From an uncultured Actinomycetes bacterium (GTDB lineage: Bacteria; Actinomycetota; Thermoleophilia; Solirubrobacterales; Solirubrobacteraceae), in assembly GCA_963707695.1 (NCBI GenBank), contig CAVPQY010000005.1, positions 100,050-164,049 on the forward strand: 64,000 nucleotides of DNA. Direction: 5' to 3'. The notes under the pieces are model-generated. The model did not search any database. It was not told where the DNA came from and was given only the letters and a program-made list of their open reading frames with translations. The number at the start of each line of letters is the position of its first letter. The first letter of the stretch is position 1. This document shows, one piece after another, positions 31,704 through 52,475 of this stretch. The translations under genes and the position numbers were made by a program.

Positions 31704-31707
31704 TGAG

Positions 31708-37552: not shown

Positions 37553-37567
37553 TGGATACATTATCCA
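37553..37567. promoter_or_regulatory. Operator-like perfect palindrome TGGATA-CAT-TATCCA (copy 1), overlapping a -10-like CATTAT
   Basis: It lies in the 95-nt divergent gap between the decarboxylase operon and the APC permease operon. TAGACC-N17-CATTAT is readable in the + orientation. An identical 15-mer recurs at 52461-52475. Confidence 0.6.
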
Positions 37568-37590
37568 TCTCACCCTGGGGAGGGGAGAAG

Positions 37591-39111
37591 ATGTCCGACG
37601 TGCCGCAGTCCGGCGCCGCGCCCGCCCACCTCGGCGAGAAGCGGCTGTCCACGATCCACGCGATCGGCCAGTCGCTGGCCGTGGGCCCCATCTTCTCGGT
37701 CGGGGCCATCTCGGGCCTCATCGCGGGCAAGGCCGGGTTCAACACCCCCCTCTCCGTCCTCTTCGGGGCGATCGGCGCGCTGTGCCTGGGCTACGTGATC
37801 TCGGTCTACGCGCGGCGCTACGCGGGCGCGGGGGCGATCTACGAGTACGTCGTCCGCGGCGGCCACCCCGACGTCGGCGTCGTCGCAGCCGGCCTCTACG
37901 CGCTGGGCCTCCTCTTCCTGGGTGGCGGCGGCGTGTTCATCGCCATCGGCTTCCTGTCGCAGGGCTTCTTCGCCGCCCACTGGACGGCGCTCGACGGGGT
38001 GCAGTGGTGGATCTGGGGCGCCATCGGCCTGGTCATCGCGACGGGCCTGAACCACTTCGGCGTCCGCCTGGCCGTGCGCGGCGTGCTCCTGCTCGCCGCG
38101 CTGTCGTCGATCCCGCTCGTCATCACGGCGATCATCGTGATCCTCAAGGGCGGCGCCGACGTGAACACGCTGAAGGTCTTCGACCCGGGACAGACCTCCT
38201 GGAACAGCGTCTTCAACGGCATCCTCTTCGCGGTCACGCTCTTCATCGGCTTCGAGATCGCCGCGTCGATCGGCGAGGAGGCGCACGACCCGCAGCGCGC
38301 CATCCCGCGCGCGGTCATCGGGACGATCCTCCTCTCGGGCGCCTTCTACCTCCTGGTCACCTACGCCGCGACGATCGGCTTCGGCGCCGCCGACGTGCAG
38401 CAGGCCTACGCCTCGTCGCCCAGCCCGATCGGCGAGATCGCGGGCCGCTACGTCGGCCGCGGCATGTCGACGATCGTCGACCTCGTCATCGTGCTCGACG
38501 CGATCTCCGTCGCGATCGCCTTCACCGTCGGCGCCTCCCGCATCTTCTTCGCCCTCGGCCGCGACCGGCTGCTGCCCTCCTGGTTCGCGCGCACGACGCG
38601 CTACGACACACCGCTGGGCGGGAACCTCGTCGTGGTCGCCGCGGGCGTCGTCGCGCTCGTGTGGGCCGGGCGGACGAACTACGGCGGGCCGGTGCAGCTC
38701 CCCGACGAGATCGAGGCGTTCTCGATCTCGGCCGCCGCCGGCTCGTACCTCGTCGAGGCGATCTACGTGCTGCTCGCGCTCTTCGCGCTGCGGATCGTGT
38801 GGAAGGCCGGGCGCGACGGGCTGTGGTGGAAGGTCCCGGTGATCCTCCTCGGCCTGGCCACGCCGCTGCTGGCGTACAAGGGCTCGCTGGATCCGTGGCC
38901 CACCTATCCCAACAACCGCGGCATCATCCTGGCCCTGGTGTCCGTCGGGCTCGTCGCCGTCTGGTACGCCTACCTCAAGGTGCGCCACCCCGACCGGATC
39001 CGGAACGCCGCCTCGCACGCCATCGAGCACCACGGCGTGCCGCCGCTGGACGAGACCCTGGAGTTCGAGCCCACGCCGTCGGACACGCTCCTGCGGCCCA
39101 AGGAGGTCTAG
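37591..39111 (+). CDS. APC-superfamily amino acid/polyamine permease
   Basis: Track ORF 37513..39111 from ATG 37591 (SD-like GGGGAGGGGAG upstream). It has about 12 hydrophobic helices and motifs such as FIGFEIAASIGEEAHDPQRAIPRAV. Confidence 0.85.
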   Translation: MSDVPQSGAAPAHLGEKRLSTIHAIGQSLAVGPIFSVGAISGLIAGKAGFNTPLSVLFGAIGALCLGYVISVYARRYAGAGAIYEYVVRGGHPDVGVVAAGLYALGLLFLGGGGVFIAIGFLSQGFFAAHWTALDGVQWWIWGAIGLVIATGLNHFGVRLAVRGVLLLAALSSIPLVITAIIVILKGGADVNTLKVFDPGQTSWNSVFNGILFAVTLFIGFEIAASIGEEAHDPQRAIPRAVIGTILLSGAFYLLVTYAATIGFGAADVQQAYASSPSPIGEIAGRYVGRGMSTIVDLVIVLDAISVAIAFTVGASRIFFALGRDRLLPSWFARTTRYDTPLGGNLVVVAAGVVALVWAGRTNYGGPVQLPDEIEAFSISAAAGSYLVEAIYVLLALFALRIVWKAGRDGLWWKVPVILLGLATPLLAYKGSLDPWPTYPNNRGIILALVSVGLVAVWYAYLKVRHPDRIRNAASHAIEHHGVPPLDETLEFEPTPSDTLLRPKEV

Positions 39112-39118
39112 GCCCACG

Positions 39119-40471
39119 ATGGCCCTCACGGAGCAGCCCAGCGCGCACGACGTGCGCGCCGCCCTGCCGGCCGAGGTCACGGCGGTGCGCGTGACCTACG
39201 CCGACCTGCACGGCGTGCAGCGCGGCAAGGACGTCCCCGTCGCCGAGCTGGAGCACGTGCTGCGCTCGGGCTTGGCCTTCTGCTGGGCGGTCATGGGCAC
39301 CGACCTGCGTCACACGCCCGTCGTCGGGGGCGAGCTGGGCTACCCGGACATGATCGCGCGGCTGGACCCGTCGACGCTCGTGCAGGTCCCCTGGGAGCCG
39401 AGCGTCGCCGTGGGCCTGGCCGACCTCGAGCGCGCCCTCACGCACGAGCCCGAGCCGACCGACCCGCGTCACGCGGTGCGCCGCGCGGTGGAGGCGTTCG
39501 CCGAGCTGGGGTTCGTCCCGGTCGTCGGCCCCGAGCTCGAGTTCTTCCTCCTGCGCCCCGACGTCGACGCCCCCGGCGGGGCGTCCAAGCGCCATGTCGA
39601 CCACCTCTCGATGGTCTACACCGTCGGCGCGCAGGCGGATCCCAACGGCGTCGTCCGCACGCTGCTGGAGGGCTGCGCGGCGCTCGGCCTGGGCGCGTTC
39701 GCGGCCAACCACGAGTTCATGAACAGCCAGTACGAGATCAACCTCCGCGAGTCGGAGGCCCTCGACGCGGCCGACCGCGCGTTCCGCCTGAAGTCCGCGG
39801 TGAAGGACGCCGCCGCCCAGCGCGGGCTGCACGCGACGTTCATGGGCAAGCCCTTCAACGACCAGGGCGGGTCGGGGTTCCACGTCCACCTCTCGCTGGC
39901 CAGGGACGGCGAGAACGCCTTTCCCGACGAGGACGACGAGCGCGGCGTGGCCCCCGAGCTGCGCCACTTCACGGCGGGGGTCCTGGCGCACGCGCCCGCG
40001 TGCATGGCCTTCCTGAACCCGACGGTCAACGCCTACCGGCGGATCCTGCCCGACTCGCTGGCCCCGACCCACGCCAACTGGGGCTTCGACAATCGCACGA
40101 CGTACGTTCGCATCCCGCCCGAGCGCGGCGGCGCGACGCGCCTGGAAGTCCGCGTGGGCGACGGCTCGTCGAACCCGTACCTCGGGATCGCGGCGGTGCT
40201 CTTCGCCGGCCTCGACGGCGTGCGCCGCGGCCTGGACCCGGGCGAGCCGCTCTCCGGCGACGCCTACACCGCGCCCGAGGACCGGGCCGGCGGACGGCTG
40301 CCCCCGTCGCTCGACGACGCGCTCGACGCCCTCGAGGGCGACGAGGTCATCGCCGAGGCGATGGGGCGCGAGCTCGTCGAGACGTTCGTCGCCGTCAAGC
40401 GCTTCGAGCTCGAGCGCCACCGGGCCCACGTGTCCGAGTGGGAGCTCGAGGAGTACCTCCACCACCTGTAG
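39119..40471 (+). CDS. Glutamine synthetase-family protein, gamma-glutamyl-amine (PuuA/GlnA3-like) synthetase candidate
   Basis: Track ORF 39119..40471. It reads VRVTYADLHGVQRGKDV, GPELEFFLL, ANHEFMNSQYEINL, ATFMGKPF...GSGFHVHLSL, LNPTVNAYRR, NRTTYVRIP and EVRVGDGSSNPYL. Confidence 0.8.
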   Translation: MALTEQPSAHDVRAALPAEVTAVRVTYADLHGVQRGKDVPVAELEHVLRSGLAFCWAVMGTDLRHTPVVGGELGYPDMIARLDPSTLVQVPWEPSVAVGLADLERALTHEPEPTDPRHAVRRAVEAFAELGFVPVVGPELEFFLLRPDVDAPGGASKRHVDHLSMVYTVGAQADPNGVVRTLLEGCAALGLGAFAANHEFMNSQYEINLRESEALDAADRAFRLKSAVKDAAAQRGLHATFMGKPFNDQGGSGFHVHLSLARDGENAFPDEDDERGVAPELRHFTAGVLAHAPACMAFLNPTVNAYRRILPDSLAPTHANWGFDNRTTYVRIPPERGGATRLEVRVGDGSSNPYLGIAAVLFAGLDGVRRGLDPGEPLSGDAYTAPEDRAGGRLPPSLDDALDALEGDEVIAEAMGRELVETFVAVKRFELERHRAHVSEWELEEYLHHL

Positions 40472-41731
40472 GTGCAGACGACCATGGGCATCGCCACCGA
40501 CCTGCGGCTCGAGGACGTCGACCTCGCCGACCACGACAACTTCGTCGAGCGCGTCCCGCACGAGATGTTCGCGCTCCTGCGCCGCGAGGACCCCGTGTTC
40601 TTCCAGCACGAGGCCGACGGTCCGGGCTTCTGGTGCATCACGCGCTACGACGACATCAACGCCGTGCACCGCGACTGGGAGACGTTCTCGTCCGAGACCG
40701 GCGGGACGTCGCTGCAGGACCTGCGCCCCGACGAGATCGAGGCGCGCAAGTCGATGATCGACATGGACCCCCCGCGCCACAACCAGCTGCGCGCGCTGGT
40801 GGCCAAGGGCTTCACGCCGCGGGCGGTCCGGGCCTACGAGCTGAAGATCCGCGAGCTCATCGACGGCATCCTCGACGACGCGCTGCCGCTCGGCGAGTTC
40901 GACTTCGTCGAGCACGTCGCCGCCGAGCTGCCGATGCGGGTGTTCGCCGAGATGCTCGGCGCCCCGCAGGAGGACCGGCGCCACATCGTCGACCTCGGTG
41001 ACCGCCTTCTGGGCAACACCGACCCCGAGTTCGCCACGCCCGAGGAGCTCGAGCGCCACCGTCACCTGCCCTTCTCGTCACCCGTCGCGCTCGAGATGTT
41101 CGAGTACGGCCGCAAGCTCGCCGCCGACCGGCGCGAGCACCCGCGCGACGACATCGTCACGAAGCTCGTGCAGGCGCAGATCGACGGCGAGCCGCTGACC
41201 CAGCGCGAGTTCGACGTCTACTTCCTCCTGCTGGCCACGGCCGGCAACGAGACCACGCGCCACACGATCTCCAGCGGCCTGGTGGCGCTCATGGAGTTCC
41301 CCGAGCAGCTCGACCGCCTGCGGCGCGAGCCCGACCTGCACGCGACCGCGGCCGAGGAGATGCTGCGCTGGGCCACGCCCGTGCACCACTTCCGCCGAAC
41401 CTCCACGAAGGACGTCCAGTTCGGCGGCAAGCTCATCCGCCGCGGCGACAAGGTCGTGACGTGGTTCACGTCGGGCAACCGCGACGAGGACTACTTCCCC
41501 GACGGCGACCGCTTCGACGTCGCGCGTGCCCCGAACCCGCACCTCACCTTCGGCCCGGGCGGCGTGCACTTCTGCATGGGCGCGCACCTCGCGCGGCTCG
41601 AGGTGCGCATCGCCTTCGAGGAGCTGCTCCCGCGGGTCCGGTCGATCGAGCCGGCCGGCCCGCACGAGCGCCTGCGGTCGAACTTCTTCAACGGCATCAA
41701 GCGGCTCCCCGTGCGGGTGGAGGCGTCCTGA
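40472..41731 (+). CDS. Cytochrome P450
   Basis: Track ORF 40472..41731 (GTG directly after the GS-like stop, alternative ATG 40484). The I-helix is LLLATAGNETTRH. It has ExxR (EEMLRW) and the heme loop FGPGGVHFCMGAHLAR. Confidence 0.9.
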   Translation: MQTTMGIATDLRLEDVDLADHDNFVERVPHEMFALLRREDPVFFQHEADGPGFWCITRYDDINAVHRDWETFSSETGGTSLQDLRPDEIEARKSMIDMDPPRHNQLRALVAKGFTPRAVRAYELKIRELIDGILDDALPLGEFDFVEHVAAELPMRVFAEMLGAPQEDRRHIVDLGDRLLGNTDPEFATPEELERHRHLPFSSPVALEMFEYGRKLAADRREHPRDDIVTKLVQAQIDGEPLTQREFDVYFLLLATAGNETTRHTISSGLVALMEFPEQLDRLRREPDLHATAAEEMLRWATPVHHFRRTSTKDVQFGGKLIRRGDKVVTWFTSGNRDEDYFPDGDRFDVARAPNPHLTFGPGGVHFCMGAHLARLEVRIAFEELLPRVRSIEPAGPHERLRSNFFNGIKRLPVRVEAS

Positions 41732-42393
41732 GGCGCGACCTCGACGTCGTCACCGTCGTCGACCGGGCCTACGCCGCCCTGCGCGAGCGGATCCTCTCCG
41801 GCGACCTGCCGCACCACGCCAAGCTGCGCCAGGAGGACCTCGCGGCCGAGCTCGGCGTGTCGCGCACGCCGGTGCGCGAGGCGCTCGGGCGCCTGGCGGC
41901 GGACGGGCTCGTCGAGCTGCTGCCCAACCGGGGCGCGCGCGTCGCCGACATCAGCCCCGAGGACATGCGCGCGTCCTACGAGGCGCGCCTCCTCGTCGAG
42001 CCGGCCGCCGCCGGCCTGGCGGCCGCGCGCCGTGACCCGCGCGCGCTCGCGGCGATGCGCGCCGCGGTGGCGGCCCACCGCGCCTGCGCCGGTGACGTCC
42101 GGGCCGCCTTCGGCGCCAACCGCGACTTCCACGTCGCGCTCGTCGCGGGAGCGGGCAACCCGTTCCTGGGGCGGTTCGTCGAGGGCCTGTGGGCGCGCCG
42201 CGTCGGGCTGCGGATCTACGAGGCCCAGCGCGAGTCCCCGGACCTCATCGCGCTCGACGCCGACCAGCACGAGGCGATCGCCGACGCGGTCGCCCGGGGT
42301 GCCGCCGACGAGGCGGAGCGGCTCACGCGCGAGCACATCGGCGGGGCCATGCGGGTGCTGCTCGAGGCCCTCGGCGACGACGCCGCGGCATGA
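41728..42393 (+). CDS. GntR-family regulator, FadR subfamily (wHTH + FCD domain); start codon unresolved
   Basis: Frame of track ORF 41461..42393. It reads AYAALRERILSGDLPHHAKLRQEDLAAELGVSRTPVREALGRLAADGLVELLPNRGARVA, then an FCD-like helical domain. No ATG/GTG/TTG lies between the P450 stop and the HTH, so I placed the start at CTG 41728, which overlaps the P450 TGA. Confidence 0.7.
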   Translation: MRRDLDVVTVVDRAYAALRERILSGDLPHHAKLRQEDLAAELGVSRTPVREALGRLAADGLVELLPNRGARVADISPEDMRASYEARLLVEPAAAGLAAARRDPRALAAMRAAVAAHRACAGDVRAAFGANRDFHVALVAGAGNPFLGRFVEGLWARRVGLRIYEAQRESPDLIALDADQHEAIADAVARGAADEAERLTREHIGGAMRVLLEALGDDAAA

Positions 42394-43472
42394 GCGAGCT
42401 GCGCAAGCGCCCCGACCTCGTCGTCCACGAGCGCGAGCCCCTCAACGCCGAGACGCCACGCGCGGTCCTGGGCGCCGCGTCGCTGACGCCCACCGACGCG
42501 TTCTTCGTGCGCGACCACGGCCCGGTGCCCGGAGCCCGGTCCGACTGGCGCGTCGAGGTCGGCGGGCTCGTCGACGCGCCGCTGTCGCTCGGCCTCGACG
42601 ACCTGCAGAACGGGCGCTTCGCGCGTCGCGAGGTCGCGGCGACGCTCCAGTGCGCGGGCAACCGGCGGGCCGCGCTGCTGGCGGTGGGCGACGTCCCCGG
42701 CGAGGCGCCCTGGGGCCCGGGCGCGACCGGGACCGCCGTCTGGGGCGGCGTCGCGCTCGCCGACGTGCTGCGCGCCGCCGCGCCGCGGGCGGCCGCCGCG
42801 CACGTGGCCGCCGTCGGCGCCGACCGCTCCCAGGAGGCCCGGCCGCCGCAGCCCTTCGGCGCCTCCATCCCGCTGCGCAAGGCCCTGGGTGACGAGGTCC
42901 TCCTCGCCTGGGAGATGAACGGCGCCCCGCTGCCCGCCGCGCACGGCGCCCCCGTGCGGCTCGTGGTCCCGGGGTGGATCGGCGCGCGCAGCGTCAAGTG
43001 GCTACGGCGGATCGAGCTGCGCGAGCGGCCCTTCGACGGCTGGTTCCAGGACGTCGCCTACCGCCTGCTCGCGCCCGGCGAGGAGCCCGGGCCCGGCGTC
43101 GGCGTCGCCCTGGGCGAGGTGGCGCTGAACGCCGACGTGCTCGTCCCGGGCGACGGCGCGACGGTCGGCCCGGGCCCGTTCGGGGTGCGCGGGTACGCCT
43201 ACGCGGGTGGTGACCGCACGGTCGCGCGGGTCGAGGTCTCGTCCGACGGCGGGCGCTCGTGGCGCCGGGCCGAGCTGCTCGAGGACCTCGGCCGGTGGGC
43301 GTGGCGGCTGTGGCGCACCGAGCTCGAGCTCCCGGCGGGCGACCACGAGGTCGTCGTGCGGGCGTGGGACAGCGCGGCGGCGACCCAGCCCGAGCGTCCC
43401 GAGACCGTGTGGAACCCCAAGGGCTACGTCAACAACGCCTGGGGGCGGATCTCCGTGCGGGTGGCGCCGTGA
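42390..43472 (+). CDS. Sulfite oxidase-family molybdopterin oxidoreductase
   Basis: Track ORF 42189..43472 from ATG 42390 (ATGA overlap with the gntR stop). It reads PLNAETP, FFVRDHGPVP, the Mo-ligand motif TLQCAGNRR, MNGAPLPAAHGAPVRLVVPGWIGARSVKWL, and the dimerisation domain GYAYAGGDRTVARVEVSSDGGRSW. Confidence 0.85.
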   Translation: MSELRKRPDLVVHEREPLNAETPRAVLGAASLTPTDAFFVRDHGPVPGARSDWRVEVGGLVDAPLSLGLDDLQNGRFARREVAATLQCAGNRRAALLAVGDVPGEAPWGPGATGTAVWGGVALADVLRAAAPRAAAAHVAAVGADRSQEARPPQPFGASIPLRKALGDEVLLAWEMNGAPLPAAHGAPVRLVVPGWIGARSVKWLRRIELRERPFDGWFQDVAYRLLAPGEEPGPGVGVALGEVALNADVLVPGDGATVGPGPFGVRGYAYAGGDRTVARVEVSSDGGRSWRRAELLEDLGRWAWRLWRTELELPAGDHEVVVRAWDSAAATQPERPETVWNPKGYVNNAWGRISVRVAP

Positions 43473-43882
43473 GCGGGGACGACCCACGGGCGGCCGGGTC
43501 GGGCGGCCGAGGGCCGTACGACCCCGAGCGGCCCCTCGACCCGCGCGACTACAGCCGCCGCACGCTCCTGGCCAACGAGCGGACCTTCCTGGCCTGGTGG
43601 CGCACGGGGCTGGCCGCGCTCACCGTCGGGCTGGCGTGCGCGCGGATCATCCCCATCGTGGGCGAGGTCCGGGCGCAGTGGCCGTACACCGTGATCGGCG
43701 TGCTGTTCGCGGCGCTGGGCATCGTGTGCCTCGTCTACGGCGAGCGCCGCCGCCGGGCGGTCGACGCGGCCGTGCGGCGGGCGGACTACGTCGATCCCGA
43801 CGACCGCCTGCTGCTCCTGCTCACGGTGCTCGCCGCGCTGGCCGGCCTCGGCCTCGTCGTGGTCTTCCTCGTCGACGCCTGA
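43469..43882 (+). CDS. DUF202 (YidH-like) membrane protein
   Basis: Tail of track ORF 43259..43882 from GTG 43469 (GTGA overlap). It reads LANERTFLAWWRTGLAALTVGLA and has two further TM helices. Confidence 0.7.
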   Translation: MSGDDPRAAGSGGRGPYDPERPLDPRDYSRRTLLANERTFLAWWRTGLAALTVGLACARIIPIVGEVRAQWPYTVIGVLFAALGIVCLVYGERRRRAVDAAVRRADYVDPDDRLLLLLTVLAALAGLGLVVVFLVDA

Positions 43883-43964
43883 GGGCGACCGATGAGTCCC
43901 GGGCCGCCTCGCCGTCTGTGGGGGCATGGGCGTGCGCGCAGCGGAGGGGCCGGGACCGGTGGGG

Positions 43965-43986
43965 GAGGTGCGGCTCGCCGCACCTC
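43965..43986 (+). terminator. Perfect 9-bp hairpin after the DUF202 gene
   Basis: GAGGTGCGG-ctcg-CCGCACCTC. There is no T-tract. Confidence 0.4.
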
Positions 43987-44026
43987 GTGACGCCGGGTAC
44001 CGGCCGGGCCGGCGGACCCCCGGATC

Positions 44027-45271
44027 GTGAGACTCAAGCGCATGGCAGTCTCCGTCGCATCCGCGCACCTGGCCCCGGCCCCCGACGCCCCGGCGCTGCC
44101 CCTCGAGGGCATCGACGTTCCGGCGTTGGCCCGCCGCGCGGCCGTGCCCGCGGCGCTTGCCGCCGCCGCAGCCGCGGCGCTCGTGGTCGCCGGCGGTCCG
44201 CTGCATGCCTTCCTCGACGCCATCGACCGCGCCGTGCAGGCCGACCCGCGCTGGGTCATCGCCGCCGGCGTCTTCGAGCTCCTCTCCTTCGTCGGCTACA
44301 TCGGCCTCTTCTGGATGGTCGGGTCGCGGGCGACGTCGCGCCTCGGCGTGCGCGCGAGCGCCTACATCACGCTCGGCGGCGCGGGCGCCACGCGGCTGCT
44401 GCCGACCGCCGGCGTCGGCGGCGCGGCCCTGACGCTCTGGAGCCTGCGGCGCGCCGGCCTGGGCACGCGCGGGGCGACGAGCACGCTGCTGAGCTTCCTC
44501 GTCCTGCAGTACGCCGTCTTCCTCGGCGCGCTGGTCGTCGCGGGCGGTCTCCTCGCCGTCGGCGTCTCGGGCCACGCGCCCCTCGGCATCAGCGCGGTGC
44601 CGGCCGGCGCGGCGGCGCTCGCGATCGCCGCCGCGCTCGTCTTCGCGGCCCGGCGCCCCGCGCCGGCGGCGGAGCTCGCCGCCGACGCCTCCCGCGCCAC
44701 CCGGGTCCGCGGCCGCCTGCGCGAGGCGCGCGGCGTCGTCGGCGCCGGCGTGCGCGACGGCATCGCCCTCCTGCGGTCCGGCGACGTGCGCCTGCTCGGC
44801 GCCCCCGCCTACTGGGCCTTCGACGCGGCCGTCCTCTGGGCGATGCTCCAGGCGTTCGGCGCGGCCCCCGCGTTCGCCGTCGTCGTCCTGGCCTACTTCG
44901 TCGGCCAGGTCGGCAACACCCTGCCCATCCCGGGCGCCGTGAGCGGCGGGATGGCCGGCGTGCTGATCGCGTGCGGCGTGCCCGCGGACCTCGCCCTCGT
45001 CTCCGTGCTGGCCTACCGCTCCATCGCGATCTGGCTGCCGGCGCCGGTCGGCCTGGCCGCCCTGCGCCCGCTGCGCCGCACCGTCGCCGCGTGGGCGCGC
45101 GAGGACCAGGCCGGCACCGTCGAGCCCGCGACCGAGGTCGTCGCCCCCGAGGTCGTCGCCCCCGAGCTGGTCGCGCCCGAGCTGGTCGCGCCCGAGCTGG
45201 TCGCGCCCGAGCTGGTGGTGTCGGCCCCCCGCGTCGTGCGCGAGCGCGACGCCCTCGCGCTCGCCGCCTAG
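44027..45271 (+). CDS. Lysylphosphatidylglycerol-synthase-TM-region (UPF0104, flippase-like) membrane protein with a C-terminal pentapeptide repeat tail
   Basis: Track ORF 44027..45271. It has multiple TM helices and reads YFVGQVGNTLPIPGAVSGGMAGVLIACGV...VLAYRSIAIWLPAPVG. The tail is (E/A)VVAPEVVAPELVAPELVAPELVAPELV. Confidence 0.7.
   Translation: MRLKRMAVSVASAHLAPAPDAPALPLEGIDVPALARRAAVPAALAAAAAAALVVAGGPLHAFLDAIDRAVQADPRWVIAAGVFELLSFVGYIGLFWMVGSRATSRLGVRASAYITLGGAGATRLLPTAGVGGAALTLWSLRRAGLGTRGATSTLLSFLVLQYAVFLGALVVAGGLLAVGVSGHAPLGISAVPAGAAALAIAAALVFAARRPAPAAELAADASRATRVRGRLREARGVVGAGVRDGIALLRSGDVRLLGAPAYWAFDAAVLWAMLQAFGAAPAFAVVVLAYFVGQVGNTLPIPGAVSGGMAGVLIACGVPADLALVSVLAYRSIAIWLPAPVGLAALRPLRRTVAAWAREDQAGTVEPATEVVAPEVVAPELVAPELVAPELVAPELVVSAPRVVRERDALALAA
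45134..45220 (+). repeat. 15-nt tandem repeat, about 6 copies (GAGSTSGTCGCSCCC), coding for VVAPE/LVAPE
   Basis: The direct reading is gaggtcgtcgccccc x2, then gagctggtcgcgccc x3, plus a partial copy. Confidence 0.85.
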
Positions 45272-45487: not shown

Positions 45488-46051
45488 ATGCCCTTCACCC
45501 GTCCCGCCCTCGTGGACCTGCGCCCGCTCGACGCGCGCGACGGCGCGGCGTTCGCCACGTTCGTCGACGGGCTGAGCGCCGAGTCGCGAAGCCGCCGCTT
45601 CCTCGGGCCGAAGCCCCGGCTGACCGCCAAGGAGCTCGCGTACCTCACCGACGTCGACGGGGTCACCCACGGCGCCTTCGCCGCGATCGACCCGCGCACC
45701 GGCGCGATCGTGGGCGAGGCCCGCTACGCGCCGTGGCCCGGCCGCCCGTCGGTGGCCGACCTCGCGGTGACGGTGGCCGACGAGCTCCAGCGCCGCGGGA
45801 TCGGCACGGCCCTCGCCGTCGCCACGGTGGAGGCGGCGCGCGCGAACGGCGTGCGCACCCTGACCGCGAGCACGCTCTGGGAGAACGTGCCGGCCCGGGC
45901 GCTCCTGCGTGGCCTCGGCTTCCGCCCCACCGGCAGCGGCGACGGCGTCGTCGAGCTCGAGCTCGACCTCGCGACCGCGGCCTCCCGCCCGGGCGTCGTG
46001 GCCCGAGTGCCGGCCGCCTCGCTGCCCGCGGTGGCGGCGGGCGCGGCCTGA
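45488..46051 (+). CDS. GNAT-family acetyltransferase
   Basis: Track ORF 45458..46051 from ATG 45488. It reads VADLAVTVADELQRRGIGTALAVATVEAARANGVRTLTASTLWENVPARALLRGLGF. Confidence 0.75.
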   Translation: MPFTRPALVDLRPLDARDGAAFATFVDGLSAESRSRRFLGPKPRLTAKELAYLTDVDGVTHGAFAAIDPRTGAIVGEARYAPWPGRPSVADLAVTVADELQRRGIGTALAVATVEAARANGVRTLTASTLWENVPARALLRGLGFRPTGSGDGVVELELDLATAASRPGVVARVPAASLPAVAAGAA

Positions 46052-46095
46052 GCGGTGGCGCCGGGCATGTGGGACCCTCGGCCAGGGAGGATCCC

Positions 46096-46773
46096 GTGAC
46101 CGACGCCCTGCGCCCCGGACCGCTGCGGACCGCCGGCCACCTCGCGGTGGCGCTGCGGCGCAGCACGGCGCTGCGCCGCCGGCGCTGGACGCTCTGCGCG
46201 GCGCTCGTCGTCGCCGGCGTCGTCCTGGGCGGGCCGGGCGGGGTGCTGCTCGGCCTGACCGCCGCGGTGCTGGCGCTCGACGCGCTCATCCCCATGCCGG
46301 GGACCACGGTGGGCGAGGCCGACGACCGCTTCTGGCGGCTCGTGCGGCAGCGCGCCCGGGTGCGCCGGTGGCGGCGCCTGCGCCGACTGCCGCCGGAGGC
46401 GCTCGAGCTCGTCGACGACCGCCACGGCCCTCTGTCGGTCGCGGCGCGCCGGGACCTCGGGGTCCTGCCGATCCCCCTCCGCTCGATCACCGGCACCGTC
46501 GAGGGGGCCAAGGCGGCGAGCTTCGACGGTGCCTTCCGGCCCGACCCGTCGTCGCGCGCCCGCTGGGTCCGGCTGTGGCTCGCGCAGGCCCACGACGCCC
46601 CGCTGCCGCCGATCAGCGTCTTCCGCGTCGCGGGCGACCACGTCGTGCGCGACGGGCACCACCGGGTCTCCGTCGCCCGTGACCACGGGCGGCCCACGAT
46701 CGACGCCGAGGTCGTCGAGCTCGTGCCCCGCTCTCGCGGCGGCCGGCCGCCCGGGCCGCCGCCGGCGGGCTAG
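46096..46773 (+). CDS. Membrane-associated protein with a C-terminal ParB/sulfiredoxin-like nuclease domain
   Basis: Tail of track ORF 43207..46773 from GTG 46096 (SD-like GGGAGGA upstream). The TM segments are LCAALVVAGVVLGGPGGVLLGLTAAVLAL. The C-terminus reads PPISVFRVAGDHVVRDGHHRVSVARDHGRPTIDAEVVEL (DGHHR motif). Confidence 0.6.
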   Translation: MTDALRPGPLRTAGHLAVALRRSTALRRRRWTLCAALVVAGVVLGGPGGVLLGLTAAVLALDALIPMPGTTVGEADDRFWRLVRQRARVRRWRRLRRLPPEALELVDDRHGPLSVAARRDLGVLPIPLRSITGTVEGAKAASFDGAFRPDPSSRARWVRLWLAQAHDAPLPPISVFRVAGDHVVRDGHHRVSVARDHGRPTIDAEVVELVPRSRGGRPPGPPPAG

Positions 46774-46782
46774 GTTGGGGCG

Positions 46783-47592
46783 GTGCTCCCCCCGGTCGTC
46801 GAGGCCGCCGACGTGCGCCGGCGCGCGGACGTCGTGCTCGCCGACGTGCGCTGGTACCTCGACGGGCGCTCCGGCCGCGCGGCCTACGACGCGGGCCACC
46901 TGCCCGGGGCGGTCTTCGTCGACCTCGACGCCTGGCTCGCCGCGCCGCCCGGTGCGGCCGGGCGCCACCCGCTGCCCGACCCGGCGACGTTCGCGCGCGG
47001 GATGGCCGGGCTCGGCGTCGGGGACGACGACGCCGTCGTGGCCTACGACGACGCGGGCGGCGTCGTCGCGGCGCGGCTCGTGTGGATGCTGCGCGCCACC
47101 GGCCGCGACGCCGCGCTGCTCGACGGCGGCCTCGCCGCCTGGGACGGCCCGCTCGAGACCGCGACGCCACCGCGGCCGCGGGCGCGCTTCACGGCGGTGC
47201 CGTGGCCGGACGCGCTCCTGGCCTCGATCGGCGAGGTGGCCGGAGGGCGCGCCGTCCTGCTCGACGCGCGCGAGCGCGCGCGCCACCTGGGCCTGGAGGA
47301 GCCCGTCGACCCGCGCGCCGGGCACATCCCGGGCGCGCTCAGCCTGCCGGCCGGCGAGCTCCTCGACGACGCCGGGCGCCTCCTCGCGGCCGCGGACCTG
47401 CGGGCCCGCTTCGCGGCCGCCGGCGTGGAGGACGCCACCGCGGTCGTCGCGTCGTGCGGCTCGGGGGTGACCGCCTGCCACACCCTGCTGGCGCTCGAGC
47501 ACGCCGGGCTGGGCCGGGGCCGCTTGTTCCCGGGGTCGTTCTCGCAGTGGAGCCGCGACCCGGCGCGGCCGGTCGCGACCGGCGAGGGCTAG
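46783..47592 (+). CDS. sseA: Tandem-rhodanese sulfurtransferase (thiosulfate/3-mercaptopyruvate sulfurtransferase)
   Basis: Track ORF 46783..47592. It reads YDAGHLPGAVFVD, RHPLP, GHIPGAL, the active-site loop VVASCGSGVTAC, and FPGSFSQW. Confidence 0.8.
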   Translation: MLPPVVEAADVRRRADVVLADVRWYLDGRSGRAAYDAGHLPGAVFVDLDAWLAAPPGAAGRHPLPDPATFARGMAGLGVGDDDAVVAYDDAGGVVAARLVWMLRATGRDAALLDGGLAAWDGPLETATPPRPRARFTAVPWPDALLASIGEVAGGRAVLLDARERARHLGLEEPVDPRAGHIPGALSLPAGELLDDAGRLLAAADLRARFAAAGVEDATAVVASCGSGVTACHTLLALEHAGLGRGRLFPGSFSQWSRDPARPVATGEG

Positions 47593-47885
47593 GGCCGGCG
47601 CGCCACGACGCGGACCTCGACGCGGGCGGGCCGCGTCGGGTCGCCGAGGGAGAGGAAGTCGCGCACCCGCGCGGCGTGCGCGCAGAAGGGGCAGGCCATC
47701 GCGTCGGCCGGCGCGGCGCCACCGGGCGGGAGCGCGACCGGCGCGTCGCAGGCCGGGCAGGCGAGGGTCCCCCGGGCGACCGGGGCCGTCCGGCCGACCC
47801 GGCGCAGCTCGCGCTCGCCGCCGAGGTCGCCGACGCGGTCGGGACCGACGGGCTCGGGACCGCCCAGGCCACGGTGCAGGCTCAC
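47589..47885 (-). CDS. Hypothetical small zinc-ribbon-like protein
   Basis: Tail of track ORF 47589..48821 from GTG 47885. It reads ...GTLACPACDAPVALPPGGAAPADAMACPFCAHAARVRDF... (CPxC...CPxC). There is no clear RBS. Confidence 0.3.
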   Translation of the reverse strand: MSLHRGLGGPEPVGPDRVGDLGGERELRRVGRTAPVARGTLACPACDAPVALPPGGAAPADAMACPFCAHAARVRDFLSLGDPTRPARVEVRVVARRP

Positions 47886-48017
47886 GGACAGGAGTCTAGG
47901 CCGCCGTTGGCCGCTCCTCACCGGCCGCTCGCCGCGCTGCCGTGGCCGCGAGCGCAACTCCGGGTCGGGGTGGCCGGTTGGGGCCTGCGTACCCCGACCA
48001 AGGAGCAGTCCCTCCCC

Positions 48018-48704
48018 ATGCCCTCCCGTCTCTCCCGCCTGCGCGCCCGGCTGAGCTTCGCCAACGTGACGTCCGCCGTCGCCCTGTTCATCGCGCTCGG
48101 CGGCACGAGCTACGCCGCCGTCAGCGTCGGCTCCGCCGAGATCCGCACCGACGCCGTCGGCGCGTCCGAGCTCCGCCGCGACGCGGTCGGCGCCTCGGAG
48201 ATCCGCCGCAACGCGGTCGGCACGTCGGAGGTCCGCACGAACGGCGTCGGCAAGTCCGAGATCAAGACCGGCGCGGTCGGCCGCGCCGAGCTCGGCGCCG
48301 ACACGGTCTTCTCCTCCGAGCTCGCCCCGGGCTCCGTCGGCTCGGACGAGCTGCGCGACGGCCAGGTCGCCCTGGCGGACCTCTCGACGGAGGCGCGGAC
48401 GGCGCTGACCCAGGCCGATCGGGCGATGGTGAGCTCGGGCGGCGCGCTCGCCGGCGGGACCGCCAAGCTCGCCACCCGCACCGCGACGGGCACCTACACG
48501 GTGACCTTCGCGCGGGACGTGAGCGCCTGCACCTACACGGCGACGCTCGCCGGCGTGAAGAGCGGGACGACGGTCGAGCAGCCCGCCGCGGGCAGCGTCA
48601 CGGTCGCCCCCGCGACGAGCCCGGCGACCGACGTCGTGGTGAAGACCTACGACGCGACCGGGACCGCCGCCGACGGCCCGTTCCACGTCCTGGCGACCTG
48701 CTGA
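48018..48704 (+). CDS. N-terminally anchored/secreted protein with seven 10-aa tandem repeats
   Basis: Tail of track ORF 47082..48704 from ATG 48018 (AAGGAG upstream). The anchor is [24 protein letters not shown]. The repeats are [71 protein letters not shown] beta-rich C-terminal domain ends in C. Confidence 0.65.
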
Positions 48705-48714
48705 CGAGCGGTGC

Positions 48715-48813
48715 GGCGGGGTGGCGCTCCGGCGCCGCCCCGGCCACCGGCGGGGTGGCGCTTCGGCGCCGCCCCGGCCACCGGCGGGGTGGCGCTCCGG
48801 CGCGGTTCCACCC
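48715..48813 (+). repeat. 34-bp tandem direct repeat (2.9 copies); each unit forms a GC hairpin
   Basis: The unit is GGCGGGGTGGCGCT(C/T)CGGCGCCGCCCCGGCCACC, at 48715-48748 and 48749-48782, with a partial copy at 48783-48813. The stem within each unit is GGGGTGGCGC / GCGCCGCCCC (one G-T pair) with a T(C/T)CG loop. Confidence 0.8.
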
Positions 48814-48850
48814 GCGTGCAACGTGTGGCGACGCTCCTAGACTGGAGAGC

Positions 48851-49483
48851 ATGCTCTTCTCGCGCGACAAGGAGCGCTCCGCGGCCACGCTTCCGGGCCG
48901 CGACGCCTCGCCGTTCCCGATCCCGGAGCGCCACGCCGTCCTCGGCACGCCGCTCCAGCCGCCGTTCCCCGAGGGGCTCGAGGTCGCGTACTTCGCCCTC
49001 GGGTGCTTCTGGGGGGCCGAGCGCCTCTTCTGGCGCCTGGACGGCGTCTACTCGACCGCAGTCGGCTACGCCGGCGGCCGCACGCCGTTCCCCACCTACC
49101 GGGAGACGTGCACCGGCCGCACGGACCACACGGAGACCGTGCAGGTCGTCTACGACCCGGCCAAGATCTCCTACGCCGACCTGCTGAAGGTCTTCTGGGA
49201 GGAGCACGACCCGACCCAGGGCGACCGGCAGGGCAACGACGTCGGCACGCAGTACCGCTCGGCGATCTTCACGACGACCGAGGCGCAGGCCGCCGACGTC
49301 GAGCGCACCCGCGCCGCCTTCGAGGAAGGGCTGCGCGCCGCCGGGCACGGGTCGATCACGACCGAGGTCGCCCCGGCCGGCCCGTTCTACTACGCCGAGG
49401 CCGACCACCAGCAGTACCTCCACAAGGTGCCCCACGGCTACTGCGGCCTGAAGGGCACCGGCGTCAGCTGCGCGATCGCCTAG
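48851..49483 (+). CDS. msrA: Peptide-methionine (S)-S-oxide reductase
   Basis: Part of track ORF 47942..49483 from ATG 48851. It reads [51 protein letters not shown] and HQQYL. Confidence 0.9.
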
Positions 49484-49502
49484 CGGCGGGGAGGCGCCCG
49501 GA

Positions 49503-50396
49503 CTAGGCCCGGCAGCGCAGCGTCCCGCGGTCGAGCGTCCGCCCGGCCGCGCCGACGAAGGCCCAGCGGGCTCTCCCGCGCCGCAGCTGCAGCCGCAGCG
49601 CGCCGTACGTCGAGTCGTTCCCGAACGCCAGCCGGCGGTCGTCGCGCAGCGGGTAGAGGCCGCGGCCGCCGGCGCCGGAGACGAACTGCGTCAGCCCGCC
49701 GGAGGGCCGGAAGCGCTGCAGGTCGTGGTCGTGCCCGCTGAGGACGATCGTCGCGTGACCGCGCAGCGCGTCCCAGAGCGGGGCCATGTCGGCCTGGTCG
49801 CCGTGCAGCCCGGCGCTGAGGCGCGCGCGGTGCCAGAACGCGATCCGGCACGTGCCGCGATCCCGCAGCTGGCGCCGCAGCCAGCGCTCCTGCGGCGAGC
49901 CCCGGTCGTGCGCGGCCTCGGAGTCGAGCGCCAGCAGCGTCCACCCGCCCGCCGAGAAGCGGTACCAGTCCGGCGGCGTCCGGCCGTGCACCCGCCGCCA
50001 GTAGGGGTCGTAGCCCGAGCGCTGGCTGCGCGCGTCGTGGTTGCCCGGCACGGGCGCGGTGATCCGCGCCAGGCGCCCGTAGCTCGGCGCGTAGCCCGTC
50101 CGGAACTCCGCGGCCGTCCCGCTCTCGTAGACGTCGCCGAGGTAGAGGAAGCGGTCCGGCCGCCCGCGCGCGATGCGCGCCGCGACAGCGCGCCCGTCCG
50201 CGCGGGCGTCGCCGTCGCCGACCGCCCAGACCGTCGCCGTCGCCCCCGGGACCGATCGCACGAACGGCCCGCCGCCCGAGCCCGGGACCCGGTCGCCGGA
50301 GCCGCCTCCGAGGCGGCCGCTCGCGACGGCCACGGCGGCGAGGACCACGACGAGCAGGGCGGTGAGCGCGACGAGGACCGGGTGCCGGCGGGCCAT
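49503..50396 (-). CDS. Calcineurin-like metallophosphoesterase, membrane-anchored/secreted
   Basis: Track ORF 49503..50396. The anchor is VLVALTALLVVVLAAVAVA. It reads WAVGDGD, YLGDVYE, PGNHD, FWHRA and SGHDHDLQR. Confidence 0.8.
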   Translation of the reverse strand: MARRHPVLVALTALLVVVLAAVAVASGRLGGGSGDRVPGSGGGPFVRSVPGATATVWAVGDGDARADGRAVAARIARGRPDRFLYLGDVYESGTAAEFRTGYAPSYGRLARITAPVPGNHDARSQRSGYDPYWRRVHGRTPPDWYRFSAGGWTLLALDSEAAHDRGSPQERWLRRQLRDRGTCRIAFWHRARLSAGLHGDQADMAPLWDALRGHATIVLSGHDHDLQRFRPSGGLTQFVSGAGGRGLYPLRDDRRLAFGNDSTYGALRLQLRRGRARWAFVGAAGRTLDRGTLRCRA

Positions 50397-50434
50397 CGCG
50401 CGGAGTCTGGCAGCCGGGCGGACGGGCCGTGGCG

Positions 50435-50677
50435 CTAGCGGTCGAGCAGGTGGTCGAGGCTCGGCTGCGCCGGATCGGCGGCCGGTCCCGGCACCCCGGC
50501 CGCTCGCCAGTGGAACGTCACGTCGGCGGCCTTGACGGTCGTGGCGCGCAGCCCCGGCTCGAGCGGCTGGACCTGGAAGCCGCCGGGCACGCGCCCGCGG
50601 ACGAGGGCGTGGAAGACGCGCCCGCGCCGCGCGACGCGGACGACGTCCTGCGGGTGGATGTCCTCGTGCGCGGCCAC
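50435..50677 (-). CDS. Hypothetical small protein downstream of the FAH-family gene
   Basis: Tail of track ORF 50435..51067 from GTG 50677 (VAAHEDIHPQDVVRVARRGRVFHALVRGRVPGGFQVQPLEPGLRATTVKAADVTFHW...). It begins 14 nt after the FAH stop. There is no SD and I recognise no family. Confidence 0.3.
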   Translation of the reverse strand: MAAHEDIHPQDVVRVARRGRVFHALVRGRVPGGFQVQPLEPGLRATTVKAADVTFHWRAAGVPGPAADPAQPSLDHLLDR

Positions 50678-50691
50678 GGCGGCCGCAGAGG

Positions 50692-51579
50692 CTACCCGGC
50701 GCGGTCGGCGTCGCCCGTGCTCGCGCGGGTGGCGGCCGCCTCGCGCTCCGCCTCGTCCTCGGGCATCGCGAGCGCCACGTGCAGCGTGGCGGCGGTCACC
50801 CGCGGCTGCTCGCCCACGGGCTCGAGGTCGCGGTCGAGCTCCACGACGGGGTTGCTCAGGCGGCCGATGCCCTCGATCTCGACGTCGACGACCTGGCCCG
50901 GCTGGACGGGGCGCGAGCGGGCCGGGGTGCCGGTCAGCAGGACGTCGCCGGGCTCGAGCGTCATGAGCCGCGCCGCGTCGGCGACCTGGTAGGCGGCGCT
51001 GAAGACGAGGTCGGTGCCCGTGTGCGCCTCCTGGACGAGCTCGCCGTCGACGTAGGTCCGCAGCCACAGGTCGTCGGGATCGACGTCCTGCGCGTCGACG
51101 AGCACCGGGCCCAGCGGGCAGAAGCCGTCCTGGCCCTTGACGCGCAGCATCGCCCCGCGGTCGGCGTGGCGGAAGTCGTGGACGCCCCAGTCGTTGGCGA
51201 CGGTGTAGCCGCGGACGTAGCGCAGCGCGTCGGCGACGGAGGTCCCCAGGCAGCGCTCGCCGATGACGACGGCCAGCTCACCCTCGTAGTTCAGGAAGCG
51301 GCAGCCCCGGGGCCGCGCCACGGGCGCGCGGTGGGCGCTCACCGACGACGGCGGCTTGAGGAAGAAGGCGGGCGCCTCGAGCGGGTGCGCCATCGCGTAC
51401 TCCTCCATGCGGGAGCGGTAGCTGAGGTGCGTCGCCACGATCTTCGACGGCGGGGGCACGGCGGGCAGCCAGACGGCGCCGGCGGTCGCCACCGTGCGCC
51501 CGTCCGGCAGCGTGATGACGTCGCCGTCGACCGTGCCCTCGACGGCCTGCCCGTCCACCTCGATCCGCGCGTGCCTCAC
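50692..51579 (-). CDS. Fumarylacetoacetate hydrolase (FAH)-family enzyme (HpaG / oxo-acid decarboxylase-isomerase-hydratase-like)
   Basis: C-terminal 295 aa of track ORF 50692..52518 from GTG 51579 (GTGA overlap with the upstream stop). It reads KIVATHLSYRS, FFLKPPSSV, LNYEGELAVVIG, GYTVANDWGVHDF, KGQDGFCPLGP and GDVLLTGTP. Confidence 0.8.
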   Translation of the reverse strand: MRHARIEVDGQAVEGTVDGDVITLPDGRTVATAGAVWLPAVPPPSKIVATHLSYRSRMEEYAMAHPLEAPAFFLKPPSSVSAHRAPVARPRGCRFLNYEGELAVVIGERCLGTSVADALRYVRGYTVANDWGVHDFRHADRGAMLRVKGQDGFCPLGPVLVDAQDVDPDDLWLRTYVDGELVQEAHTGTDLVFSAAYQVADAARLMTLEPGDVLLTGTPARSRPVQPGQVVDVEIEGIGRLSNPVVELDRDLEPVGEQPRVTAATLHVALAMPEDEAEREAAATRASTGDADRAG

Positions 51580-52385
51580 GGCCGCATCGCCTCCTTGTCG
51601 TGCTGGGCGACGACCTCGCCGCCGTCCACCGTGTACCCGAAGGAGAAGCGGAAGCCCTTGAGCACCTCGTGGGGCGCGATCGCCTGCAGGTCCTCGAGCG
51701 TGTCGTCGTAGAGCCGCAGCTCCGCGCTGCCCTCCCAGACCTCGGTCGCCTCGCGGTCGGTCCCGCCGGCCCGGACGAGCTCGGCCACGGCCGGCACGAC
51801 GCCGTCGTAGGCCGGGAAGTGGCGGGTGTTGTGCATGGGCGGGTCGTTGACGGTGGGGCCGGTCTCCGACACGCGCTCGAGCGTCACGACCGCGCGCGCC
51901 ACCTGCCGGTCGTTCGCGGCGCAGGTCGCCCCGAAGCGCGCGCCCGCGGCCATGCCGTGCGGCGCCGCCCTCCCCACCGGGAAGGTCCGCGTGACGTGGA
52001 TCGAGCCGAGCTTCTTCGGGAAGCCCTGGATCCAGCCGCGGTACATCGCGAAGTCCTTGTCGACCCAGATGTAGACGCACCGGCTGACCGGCTGACCGCG
52101 GAACGTGGCCCCGACCACGAGGAAGAACTCCTTGTACTGGCTCTGGATCGGGTCGACGAGCTCGTGGAAGTCGCCGCTGCACGACTGCCAGTCGGCGAAG
52201 ATCGCGGCGACCGCGCCCGCGTCGGCGGCGGGCTCGAGCTCGGGCGGCAGCAGCGCGGCGACCGCGGCCGGGTCGGTGCGGTACTCGACGATGAGGAAGT
52301 CGCCCGAGTAGTGCCACGGCGGCGGCGGGACGAGGCTCGCGCGGCCATCGGGGGAGAGGGGTGCGGTGTAGCCCTTGGGCGGCAT
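51576..52385 (-). CDS. Acetoacetate decarboxylase (ADC)-family protein
   Basis: Track ORF 51576..52637 trimmed to ATG 52385. It reads PKGYTAPLSPDGRASLVPPPPWHYSGDFLIVEYRTDPAAVAALLP, EFFLVVGATFRG, YIWVDKDFAMYRGWIQGFPKKLG and GFRFSFGYTV. Confidence 0.7.
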   Translation of the reverse strand: MPPKGYTAPLSPDGRASLVPPPPWHYSGDFLIVEYRTDPAAVAALLPPELEPAADAGAVAAIFADWQSCSGDFHELVDPIQSQYKEFFLVVGATFRGQPVSRCVYIWVDKDFAMYRGWIQGFPKKLGSIHVTRTFPVGRAAPHGMAAGARFGATCAANDRQVARAVVTLERVSETGPTVNDPPMHNTRHFPAYDGVVPAVAELVRAGGTDREATEVWEGSAELRLYDDTLEDLQAIAPHEVLKGFRFSFGYTVDGGEVVAQHDKEAMRP

Positions 52386-52460
52386 GGTCAGCGGGCCACG
52401 ATGACCGACTCGGGCGCGGCGCGCGTCCGGCCCTCCCCGACCTTGACCGCCATGCAGGAA

Positions 52461-52475
52461 TGGATACATTATCCA
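52461..52475. promoter_or_regulatory. Operator-like perfect palindrome TGGATA-CAT-TATCCA (copy 2), overlapping a -10-like CATTAT
   Basis: It lies in the 147-nt divergent gap between the ADC-like/FAH operon and the ferredoxin gene. TTGACC-N18-CATTAT is readable in the + orientation. The sequence and orientation are identical to the copy at 37553-37567. Confidence 0.6.

Follow-up and report, generated by a model that had tools for sequence, protein, structure and literature searches.

The locus and the two copies of the repeat

The stretch of DNA analysed here, which we call the window, covers 64 kb of contig CAVPQY010000005.1 from an uncultured member of the Solirubrobacteraceae, and our subject is a 15-bp repeat, TGGATACATTATCCA, which occurs in it exactly twice, at 37553-37567 (site 1) and at 52461-52475 (site 2), on the plus strand in both cases. 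Site 1 lies in a gap of 89 bp, between the start (37501) of a minus-strand gene for a pyridoxal-phosphate-dependent group II decarboxylase (36050-37501) and the ATG (37591) of a plus-strand gene for an APC-family permease (37591-39111). The permease gene is followed on the same strand by genes for a glutamine-synthetase-like (GS-like) ligase (39119-40471), a cytochrome P450 with a GTG start (40472-41731) and a GntR/FCD regulator (41728-42393), whose gene closes the operon behind site 1. On the minus strand, the decarboxylase gene is accompanied by genes for a GNAT protein (35511-36053), an SDR protein (34720-35544) and an F420-type LLM oxidoreductase (33794-34723; TIGR03619). Site 2 lies in a gap of 147 bp, between the start (52385) of a minus-strand gene for an acetoacetate-decarboxylase (ADC)-family protein (51576-52385) and the ATG (52533) of a plus-strand ferredoxin (Fd) gene (52533-52727). 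An FAH-family, HpaG-like protein (50692-51579) is encoded on the minus strand next to the ADC-family gene, and the Fd gene is followed on the plus strand by genes for a ferredoxin reductase (FdR; 52739-53965) and an aldo/keto reductase (AKR; 53976-54761).

Genes were called by the GC bias at third codon positions (GC3), and their identities were taken from Pfam and NCBIfam; Pfam confirmed all gene identities of an earlier sequence-only reading of this DNA. E-values were 1e-20 and 3e-26 for the GntR and FCD domains of the regulator, 9e-60 for the ADC domain and 1e-57 for the FAA_hydrolase domain of the FAH-family protein. The latter also matched the HpaG C-terminal domain (4e-64, under the curated cut-off), and the GS-like protein stayed under all NCBIfam equivalog cut-offs. 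The whole window contains one P450, one Fd and one FdR gene each, and this content bears out the earlier remark that the P450 operon has no redox partner and that the sole Fd/FdR pair stands behind site 2.

An exact repeat of this type is very unlikely to arise by chance in DNA with a GC content of about 76%, as had been supposed. In 100 dinucleotide-preserving shuffles the mean number of matches was 0.00-0.01, and no shuffled sequence had two or more; arithmetic puts the probability of a 15-mer with 10 A/T and 5 G/C at about 5e-12 per position, or about 6e-7 expected occurrences on both strands of the window. No third copy was present in the 64-kb window at up to two mismatches, either of the full 15-mer or of TGGATAnnnTATCCA, and the flanks of the two copies are unrelated to each other. 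The repeat had been described as a perfect palindrome; this is right for its arms, TGGATA and TATCCA, which are fully complementary, but not for the CAT spacer, which has no such symmetry and points the same way in both copies. When three conserved 5' positions are added to the 15-mer, the predicted operators become GATTGGATACATTATCCA at 37550..37567 (site 1, plus strand) and the exactly matching GAATGGATACATTATCCA at 52458..52475 (site 2, plus strand). Site 1 is unchanged in a near-identical metagenome contig (L082).

Conservation of the element in related genomes

Related loci were collected by a scan with the P450, keeping one genome per species, and this gave 80 loci (1.46 Mb in total) with P450 identities of 53-73%, mostly from metagenome-assembled genomes (MAGs) of Solirubrobacterales/Thermoleophilia, together with Solirubrobacter soli, Conexibacter species and some Acidobacteriota. 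Exact TGGATAnnnTATCCA was found in one of these loci alone (L080), and in many loci once mismatches or the TACATT core were permitted. The core pattern [GT][GT][AG]TACATT has 51 copies in the 80 loci, and 49 of them are intergenic and adjoin APC, GS, Fd, FAH, C26, ADC or GntR genes; the hexamer TACATT itself occurs 61 times, both strands together. A dispersed repeat, the outcome that would have spoken against a regulatory site, was not observed, since the window has two copies in 64 kb with unrelated flanks and 49 of the 51 copies in relatives stand at promoters of the cluster.

The 15-mer is the core of a conserved element of 17-18 bp, gAATGGATACATTATnCA, whose family logo reads gAATG[G/t]ATACATT[A/c]TnCA with TACATT invariant. 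Position +8 is variable, and the element only partly fits the 6-3-6 dyad of the 15-mer. The logo alignment of the related sites showed no conserved -35 box at a fixed distance. With a weight matrix that we derived from 35 distinct sites of the related loci, site 1 scored 34.5 bits and site 2 scored 35.6 bits, and the rest of the window reached at most 16 bits.

In many Thermoleophilia/Solirubrobacterales genomes the element is kept in position and orientation before orthologous genes, including those for the P450 and the ferredoxin, as the sequence-only reading had proposed to examine. Orthologs of the permease, GS or P450 genes stand behind the motif in L001, L003, L004, L007, L011-L014, L017, L019 and L062. 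The closest relative (L001, 73% P450 identity) repeats the two-site layout of the window, with one site before APC-GS-P450-GntR and the other between C26-ADC-FAH on the minus strand and Fd on the plus strand. Four sites are present in L017: before GS-P450, before APC2-P450b-decarboxylase, before C26-FAH-dioxygenase, which is divergent from GntR, and before ADC-ALDH (ALDH, aldehyde dehydrogenase). Decarboxylase orthologs are found in motif-controlled units of two types in relatives, APC2-P450b-decarboxylase in L017-type loci and GntR-decarboxylase, divergent from FAH, in L022, L027, L029 and L046.

A search that starts from the motif instead of the P450 was made by scanning metagenome contigs for exact AATGGRTACATTATCCA, and at least 120 matching stretches were obtained. 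Among the matches listed, 104 lie in DNA of less than 60% GC, which we read as chance occurrences in AT-rich DNA; at 60% GC or more, 11 of 16 flank genes of the cluster, and at 67% GC or more all nine do so. The same listed matches include four contigs (L115, L127, L153 and L175) that carry the 17-mer of site 2 between C26/ADC and Fd-FdR, and three contigs with the order GntR, site, FAH-GATase(-GS-P450). Three matches at 60% GC or more appear to be coincidental or lie in stretches too short for a judgement.

Unity of the gene cluster

We compared the window proteins with the 80 loci by tblastn. Most of the loci showed the gene order FAH-Fd-FdR-GATase-GS-P450 on one strand; Fd and FdR were found within 5 kb from the P450 relative in 43 of the 80 loci, FAH in 56 and GS in 73, and the decarboxylase and the APC permease were often near it. 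In the window, the genes for the GS-like protein, P450/Fd/FdR and the amidotransferase-type hydrolase are spread over 31.7-54 kb. Because these genes are adjacent in the relatives, the window appears to hold a conserved cluster that has been split by unrelated genes, and the position of Fd/FdR next to the P450 in the relatives independently supports joining the P450 to the Fd/FdR pair that lies far from it here. The earlier proposal of a split regulon of four transcription units stands in this part, with the P450 joined to Fd/FdR genes that are contiguous with it in most relatives and with the layout of site 2 repeated in L001 and in the aforementioned four metagenome contigs; the control of the two minus-strand operons by a shared site is something that we infer.

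The segment between the GntR gene and the FAH gene (42390-50677) consists of about 8 kb of functionally unrelated genes, namely those for a sulfite-oxidase-like Mo-oxidoreductase, a DUF202 protein, an LPG-synthase-like membrane protein, a GNAT protein, a rhodanese, MsrA and a metallophosphoesterase, together with two open reading frames (ORFs) without family match.

Several related loci (L003, L004, L006-L008, L012, L017, L025 and L062) have, in an operon with the decarboxylase, another APC permease and another, distantly related P450 (about 28% identity). This second-P450 operon (e.g. 12674-15460 of L017) is preceded by a box variant, GATGTATACATTATGTAAG, which has three TACAT/ATGTA half-sites and a GTTGAC -35 box on the strand of the gene.

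Among the related loci, those of Acidobacteriota MAGs (L063-L075; Holophagales, Thermoanaerobaculia and 'Ca. Multivorans') have permease-GS-P450 followed by ADC and FAH, with about 62% P450 identity and without the motif. Their occurrence suggests that the pathway has been transferred between phyla.

Overlap of the element with predicted promoters

At 17 of the 51 core sites, the downstream long ORF begins, with ATG or GTG, 5-9 nt after TACATT, and the corresponding figure for random positions is 5% (p=3e-10). This spacing is the geometry of a leaderless transcript, with a predicted start 6-8 nt after the -10 hexamer. The actinobacterial -10 consensus is TAnnnT, and TACATT fits it better than CATTAT. 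The sequence-only reading had placed a -10-like CATTAT in the motif; the overlap with a -10 box is supported by the geometry at the 17 sites, and the box itself is better supported as TACATT. It had also pointed to -35-like hexamers 17-18 nt upstream, and these are present at such positions, TAGACC at 37536-37541 (17 nt upstream of CATTAT, site 1) and TTGACC at 52443-52448 (18 nt upstream of CATTAT, site 2), but our scan for consensus promoters accepts site 2 only. There it reports TTGACC-16-TACATT or TTGACC-18-CATTAT, with 0 expected in shuffles.

The predicted -10 box of the permease-GS-P450-GntR promoter is accordingly placed at TACATT, 37557..37562 on the plus strand, which is invariant in the logo, and the predicted promoter of the ferredoxin operon extends over TTGACC-16 nt-TACATT at 52443..52470 on the plus strand. 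The permease transcript would start at about 37569-37570, with a leader of about 21 nt that contains the ribosome-binding site GGGGAGGGGAG; the ferredoxin transcript would have a leader of about 55 nt before the ATG, also with a ribosome-binding site. The motif is therefore located at or upstream of the predicted transcription start, and on this ground an RNA element was considered and rejected.

On the bottom strand, TAATGT overlaps TACATT with an offset of 1 nt at both divergent sites, and the minus-strand operons could use it as their -10 box. Bidirectional promoters can arise from symmetric -10 elements. The window resembles them, as far as can be judged from its letters, in having the overlapping TACATT/TAATGT pair between divergent operons.

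The location of the element raises the question of whether the conserved block may be a pure promoter element, such as a strong or extended -10 region recognized perhaps by a dedicated sigma factor, with no repressor involved and with regulation located elsewhere. The invariance of TACATT and its placement as a -10 box would be explained by this, as would the asymmetric CAT, which is always directed at the downstream gene. Conservation extends, however, over 17-18 contiguous bp with dyad symmetry, far beyond a -10 hexamer, and no conserved -35 box accompanies it; moreover, the motif is gone where a LysR-type regulator replaces GntR, while the enzyme genes do not change, nor presumably does the housekeeping sigma factor. 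We regard such a promoter without repressor as unlikely.

The probable cognate regulator

The 80 loci allow us to ask which protein the motif accompanies. A GntR homolog and the motif are both present in 21 loci, GntR alone in 2, the motif alone in 6 and neither in 51 (Fisher p=6e-12). One locus with GntR and without a match to the seed pattern (L010) has a variant box, AATGCATACAATATTCG; Conexibacter arvalis DSM 23288 (L058) likewise has a GntR homolog and no match to the seed, whereas the cultured Solirubrobacter soli DSM 22325 (L018) does carry the system; among the six loci with the motif alone, four are contigs truncated before the position that GntR takes in relatives, and two have single matches outside the cluster, i.e. 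chance matches. None of the 31 loci with LysR and no GntR homolog has the motif. In these loci a divergent LysR-type gene stands upstream of FAH with its own ATTATCGCG...CGATAAT-like box; the enzyme genes stay constant while the regulator and the motif change together. One locus (L019) combines the two systems: its catabolic operon has LysR, its permease has GntR and the motif, and its sites are only beside the GntR and permease genes. These results agree with the earlier nomination of the GntR/FadR-type gene as the candidate cognate regulator.

The box of the 31 LysR loci (L015, L016, L019, L023-L061) has approximately the form ATTATCGCG-N-CGCGATAAT/CATAATCGTGCG and lies about 100-200 bp upstream of FAH, preceding the FAH-Fd-FdR-GATase-GS-P450 operon.

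The GntR homologs form three or four clades with 40-58% identity, and the recognition helix G[VI]SRTPVREAL is common to all motif-linked clades. Wherever the site is found, the GntR gene is in, or divergent from, the unit with the site, and autoregulation is likely for this reason. The window protein has its best match among solved structures (E=6e-18) with an unnamed 'probable transcriptional regulator', and its NCBIfam matches are all under the cut-offs. In the stretch 41728-41860, its ORF has no in-frame ATG, GTG or TTG upstream of the helix-turn-helix; the sole plausible start is CTG at 41728, which overlaps the P450 stop and has GGAGG 5 nt upstream, and the same holds for the near-identical contig L082. 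The ortholog in L001 starts with GTG at the equivalent place.

Co-variation between clades and motif variants was considered as further evidence and was not used. Clade 1 mostly has the form ...TACATTCG and clades 2-4 have ...TACATTAT; three clade-1 loci (L018, L020 and L080) have the ATTAT form, and the recognition helix is equal in all clades.

The motif may instead be the operator of another protein, i.e. the MarR protein (31132-31680), the TetR protein (57254-58078) or a regulator encoded outside the window. The genes for MarR and TetR are both in the window, and the 17-mer also stands upstream of a LysR-family gene in two unrelated contigs. Nevertheless, GntR homologs alone track the motif among the 80 loci with the aforementioned significance, the type of the motif fits FadR-subfamily operators in part, and no MarR or TetR gene was seen at the inspected sites of the related loci, a point on which no systematic check was made. 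We therefore think it quite improbable that a protein other than GntR is the cognate regulator.

Architecture of the predicted operator

Operators of the FadR subfamily are A/T-rich palindromes with TKGT/ACMA boxes, in which the spacing between GT and AC is 3 nt, or 2 nt in the GntR, HypR, PrpR, MdcY and HpxS groups, and a weaker additional half-site is often located 7-12 nt from the centre (Suvorova et al., 2015; PMC4494728). In the family logo we recognize an inner dyad AATG[G/T]A|TACATT with the core T-G-[G/T]-A-T-A-C-A. Of 49 sites, 13 show the form K-G-T-A-T-A-C-M (GT-AT-AC), and in L036 the palindrome is perfect over 16 bp, GGAATGTATACATTCC. An ATnCA box is centred 8.5 nt right of the inner dyad, within the family's range of 7-12 nt for the extra half-site. 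The 6-3-6 dyad of the 15-mer is offset by 3.5 bp from the inner dyad and is built from the left half of the inner dyad and the ATnCA box. Clade-1 loci have the inner dyad alone (cGAATGGATACATTCg); in clades 2-4, to which the window belongs, the right half and the extension are best conserved and +8 is free. The statement that the motif lacks the GT...AC core of this subfamily holds for the 6-3-6 dyad that had been chosen, but not for the family element, in which the core is present, one base off in the window.

The system is similar to the FadR-subfamily groups with a 2-nt GT-AC spacing in its winged helix-turn-helix plus FCD protein, in the regulator being encoded in or next to the catabolic operon, in an A/T-rich dyad that has the K-G-T-A-T-A-C-M core at some of the family sites, in the divergent intergenic sites with likely autoregulation and in the extra half-site about one helical turn away. 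It differs from these groups in the outer box bases, which are A/T-swapped relative to TKGT/ACMA (A...T instead of T...A), in the GG of the window in place of GT, in the far better conservation of the right half and the 5-bp extension than of the left half, which creates the 6-3-6 dyad, and in that the window regulator has no characterised ortholog.

Proposed regulation

Most probably, the two 15-mers are operators of the GntR/FadR-subfamily regulator encoded at 41728-42393, each overlapping the predicted -10 box TACATT of a rightward promoter. The conservation of the motif and its position before orthologous genes support the earlier notion of a repressor operator over a -10 box. In this proposal the promoter at site 1 would drive permease-GS-like-P450-GntR and the promoter at site 2 would drive Fd-FdR-AKR. 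Without inducer, a dimer of the regulator on the -10 box would block RNA polymerase, and a higher oligomer might form through the extra ATnCA box. A pathway metabolite (the amine, its gamma-glutamyl amide or a derived acid) would bind the FCD domain as inducer and release the regulator. With the regulator gene in the operon behind site 1, the circuit would be autoregulated, and the regulator, when bound, could switch off the divergent decarboxylase and ADC/FAH operons as well, through the overlapping TAATGT. The regulon would then represent one catabolic pathway, split here by an insertion of about 8 kb, that may begin with uptake, decarboxylation of an amino acid to an amine and gamma-glutamylation, and may end with hydroxylation by P450/Fd/FdR, de-glutamylation and HpaD/E/G-like ring-cleavage steps. 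Repression by occlusion is the most economical reading because the -10 box would be hidden beneath a protein over positions -7 to +10. Control of the minus-strand operons by the shared sites, the sign of regulation, the inducer, the substrate and the binding itself are points that we infer.

Several observations weigh against this proposal. Site 1 lacks a -35 box and promoter of consensus grade in the consensus promoter scan, and the fact that TACATT never varies may reflect its role in the promoter as much as its recognition by the protein. The window sites read GG-AT-AC, with a G at -2 that breaks the canonical GT of the FadR core, and the clade of the window GntR (4 sites) keeps the outer positions of the inner dyad poorly. 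To judge by the sequence, the protein may use either the inner AATGGA|TACATT or TGGATA-CAT-TATCCA. The 17-mer is not exclusive to the GntR cluster system: in two contigs of about 65% GC (L133, 1505-1521; L191, 69-85), the same 17-mer is present as a 7-3-7 palindrome, ATGGATACATTATCCAT, 28 nt before a LysR-family gene that has no genes of the cluster in its vicinity, and an unrelated system may be using the same sequence there. In addition, CTG as the sole possible start makes the expression level of GntR uncertain.

The sign of regulation deserves separate consideration, because the GntR protein might activate transcription or play a dual role, rather than repress. The missing -35 box of site 1 is a common feature of activator-dependent promoters and would suit such a role. 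On the other hand, the site covers the -10 box and in leaderless relatives lies 5-9 nt from the start codon, where a bound protein would occlude RNA polymerase, and the characterised FadR-subfamily regulators of catabolic operons are, as general knowledge, overwhelmingly ligand-released repressors. We judge activation by GntR to be very unlikely. That the two copies arose by chance, or are left over from a mobile element or dispersed repeat, is a view that can be dismissed as virtually negligible, because, although the sequence is AT-rich and its 17-mer does appear by chance in AT-rich metagenome DNA, the shuffles give an expectation of 0, the flanks are unrelated, the window holds no further copy and the copies in relatives sit at cluster promoters.

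Neighbouring genes and sequence quality

To the left of the decarboxylase operon, the window encodes a two-domain VOC extradiol dioxygenase (28721-29638, minus strand), an ALDH that is frameshifted in the window (29641-31135, minus strand), the MarR protein (31132-31680, minus strand) and a GATase/class-III aminotransferase that is split in the window (about 31707-33815, plus strand); the TetR gene lies at 57254-58078. The MarR gene heads the minus-strand unit with ALDH and dioxygenase (28721-31680), an HpaR/HpaE/HpaD-like trio. The genes at 28721..33815 have no weight-matrix match in front of them. In L017, the orthologous dioxygenase and ALDH genes sit in motif-controlled units, and some of the pathway genes seem to have come under a second regulator, MarR, in this window.

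The near-identical contig L082 is ENA metagenome contig ERZ25039585 contig_49781, which is 99.7% identical to the window and ends inside it. The two records differ by single G/C indels at 30073, 32334, 33020, 36984, 37500, 40625 and 41341. In the window these indels break the ALDH gene and split a fusion of GATase and class-III aminotransferase of 702 aa, and in L082 they break the decarboxylase and P450 genes. They look like assembly errors in both records, not true pseudogenes.

Significance and comparison with known systems

This analysis provides a predicted pair of operator and regulator for very GC-rich soil actinobacteria (Solirubrobacterales and relatives), which have been poorly studied. 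It assigns redox partners to an orphan P450 and ties genes 15 kb apart to one pathway, probably a gamma-glutamylation/P450 route of amine degradation with extra decarboxylase and ring-cleavage modules, for which the literature searched offers no characterised counterpart. The mode of regulation is ordinary, a standard local repressor of the FadR type, and the pathway itself may be new; the understanding of FadR-type systems is unchanged, and the finding is useful for annotating an understudied clade. In the literature searched, the motif strings gave only unrelated primers and sequences, and this combination of genes was not found; the pathway queries led to the Ipu system described below. In the plasmid collection there was no close relative of the P450, the best being records of Embleya and Streptomyces with 52% identity.

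A wider reading, which we offer tentatively and regard as possible rather than probable, is that we are dealing with a widespread and uncharacterised regulon of soil Thermoleophilia, passed on also to Streptomyces plasmids and Acidobacteriota, that combines a new breakdown route for an aromatic amino acid with an unusual three-box GntR operator. The route would consist of decarboxylation to the amine, gamma-glutamyl 'protection' of this amine, P450 hydroxylation of the ring, which yields a catechol, and meta-cleavage of the still gamma-glutamylated compound by HpaD/E/G-like enzymes, and the boxes ATGKA / TACAT / ATnCA of the operator would imply binding beyond a simple dimer.

The isopropylamine pathway Ipu is known from Pseudomonas sp. 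KIE171 and from two gene clusters on plasmids of Arthrobacter aurescens TC1 (PMC6776027). The window cluster is similar to it in the permease, the gamma-glutamyl-amide synthetase (GS-like), the P450 with Fd and FdR, and the hydrolase of the glutamine-amidotransferase type. It differs from Ipu in adding the group II decarboxylase, the ADC-family protein, the HpaG-like FAH protein, the HpaD-like extradiol dioxygenase and ALDH. Because of these extra genes, we speculate that the substrate, rather than isopropylamine, may be an amine of aromatic or catecholic type that derives from an amino acid.

Another point of comparison is the Streptomyces canus plasmid NZ_CP107732, on which Fd, an FAD oxidoreductase, ADC-family, ALDH, 3,4-dihydroxyphenylacetate 2,3-dioxygenase and FAH genes are annotated, divergent from genes for a GS-like protein and a P450; the window holds homologs of all of them. 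The regulator on the plasmid is of the TetR family, whereas the window uses GntR, plus MarR for the dioxygenase/ALDH unit, and has its genes in at least five units. With the homoprotocatechuate (hpa) meta-cleavage genes, the window shares HpaD/E/G-like homologs.

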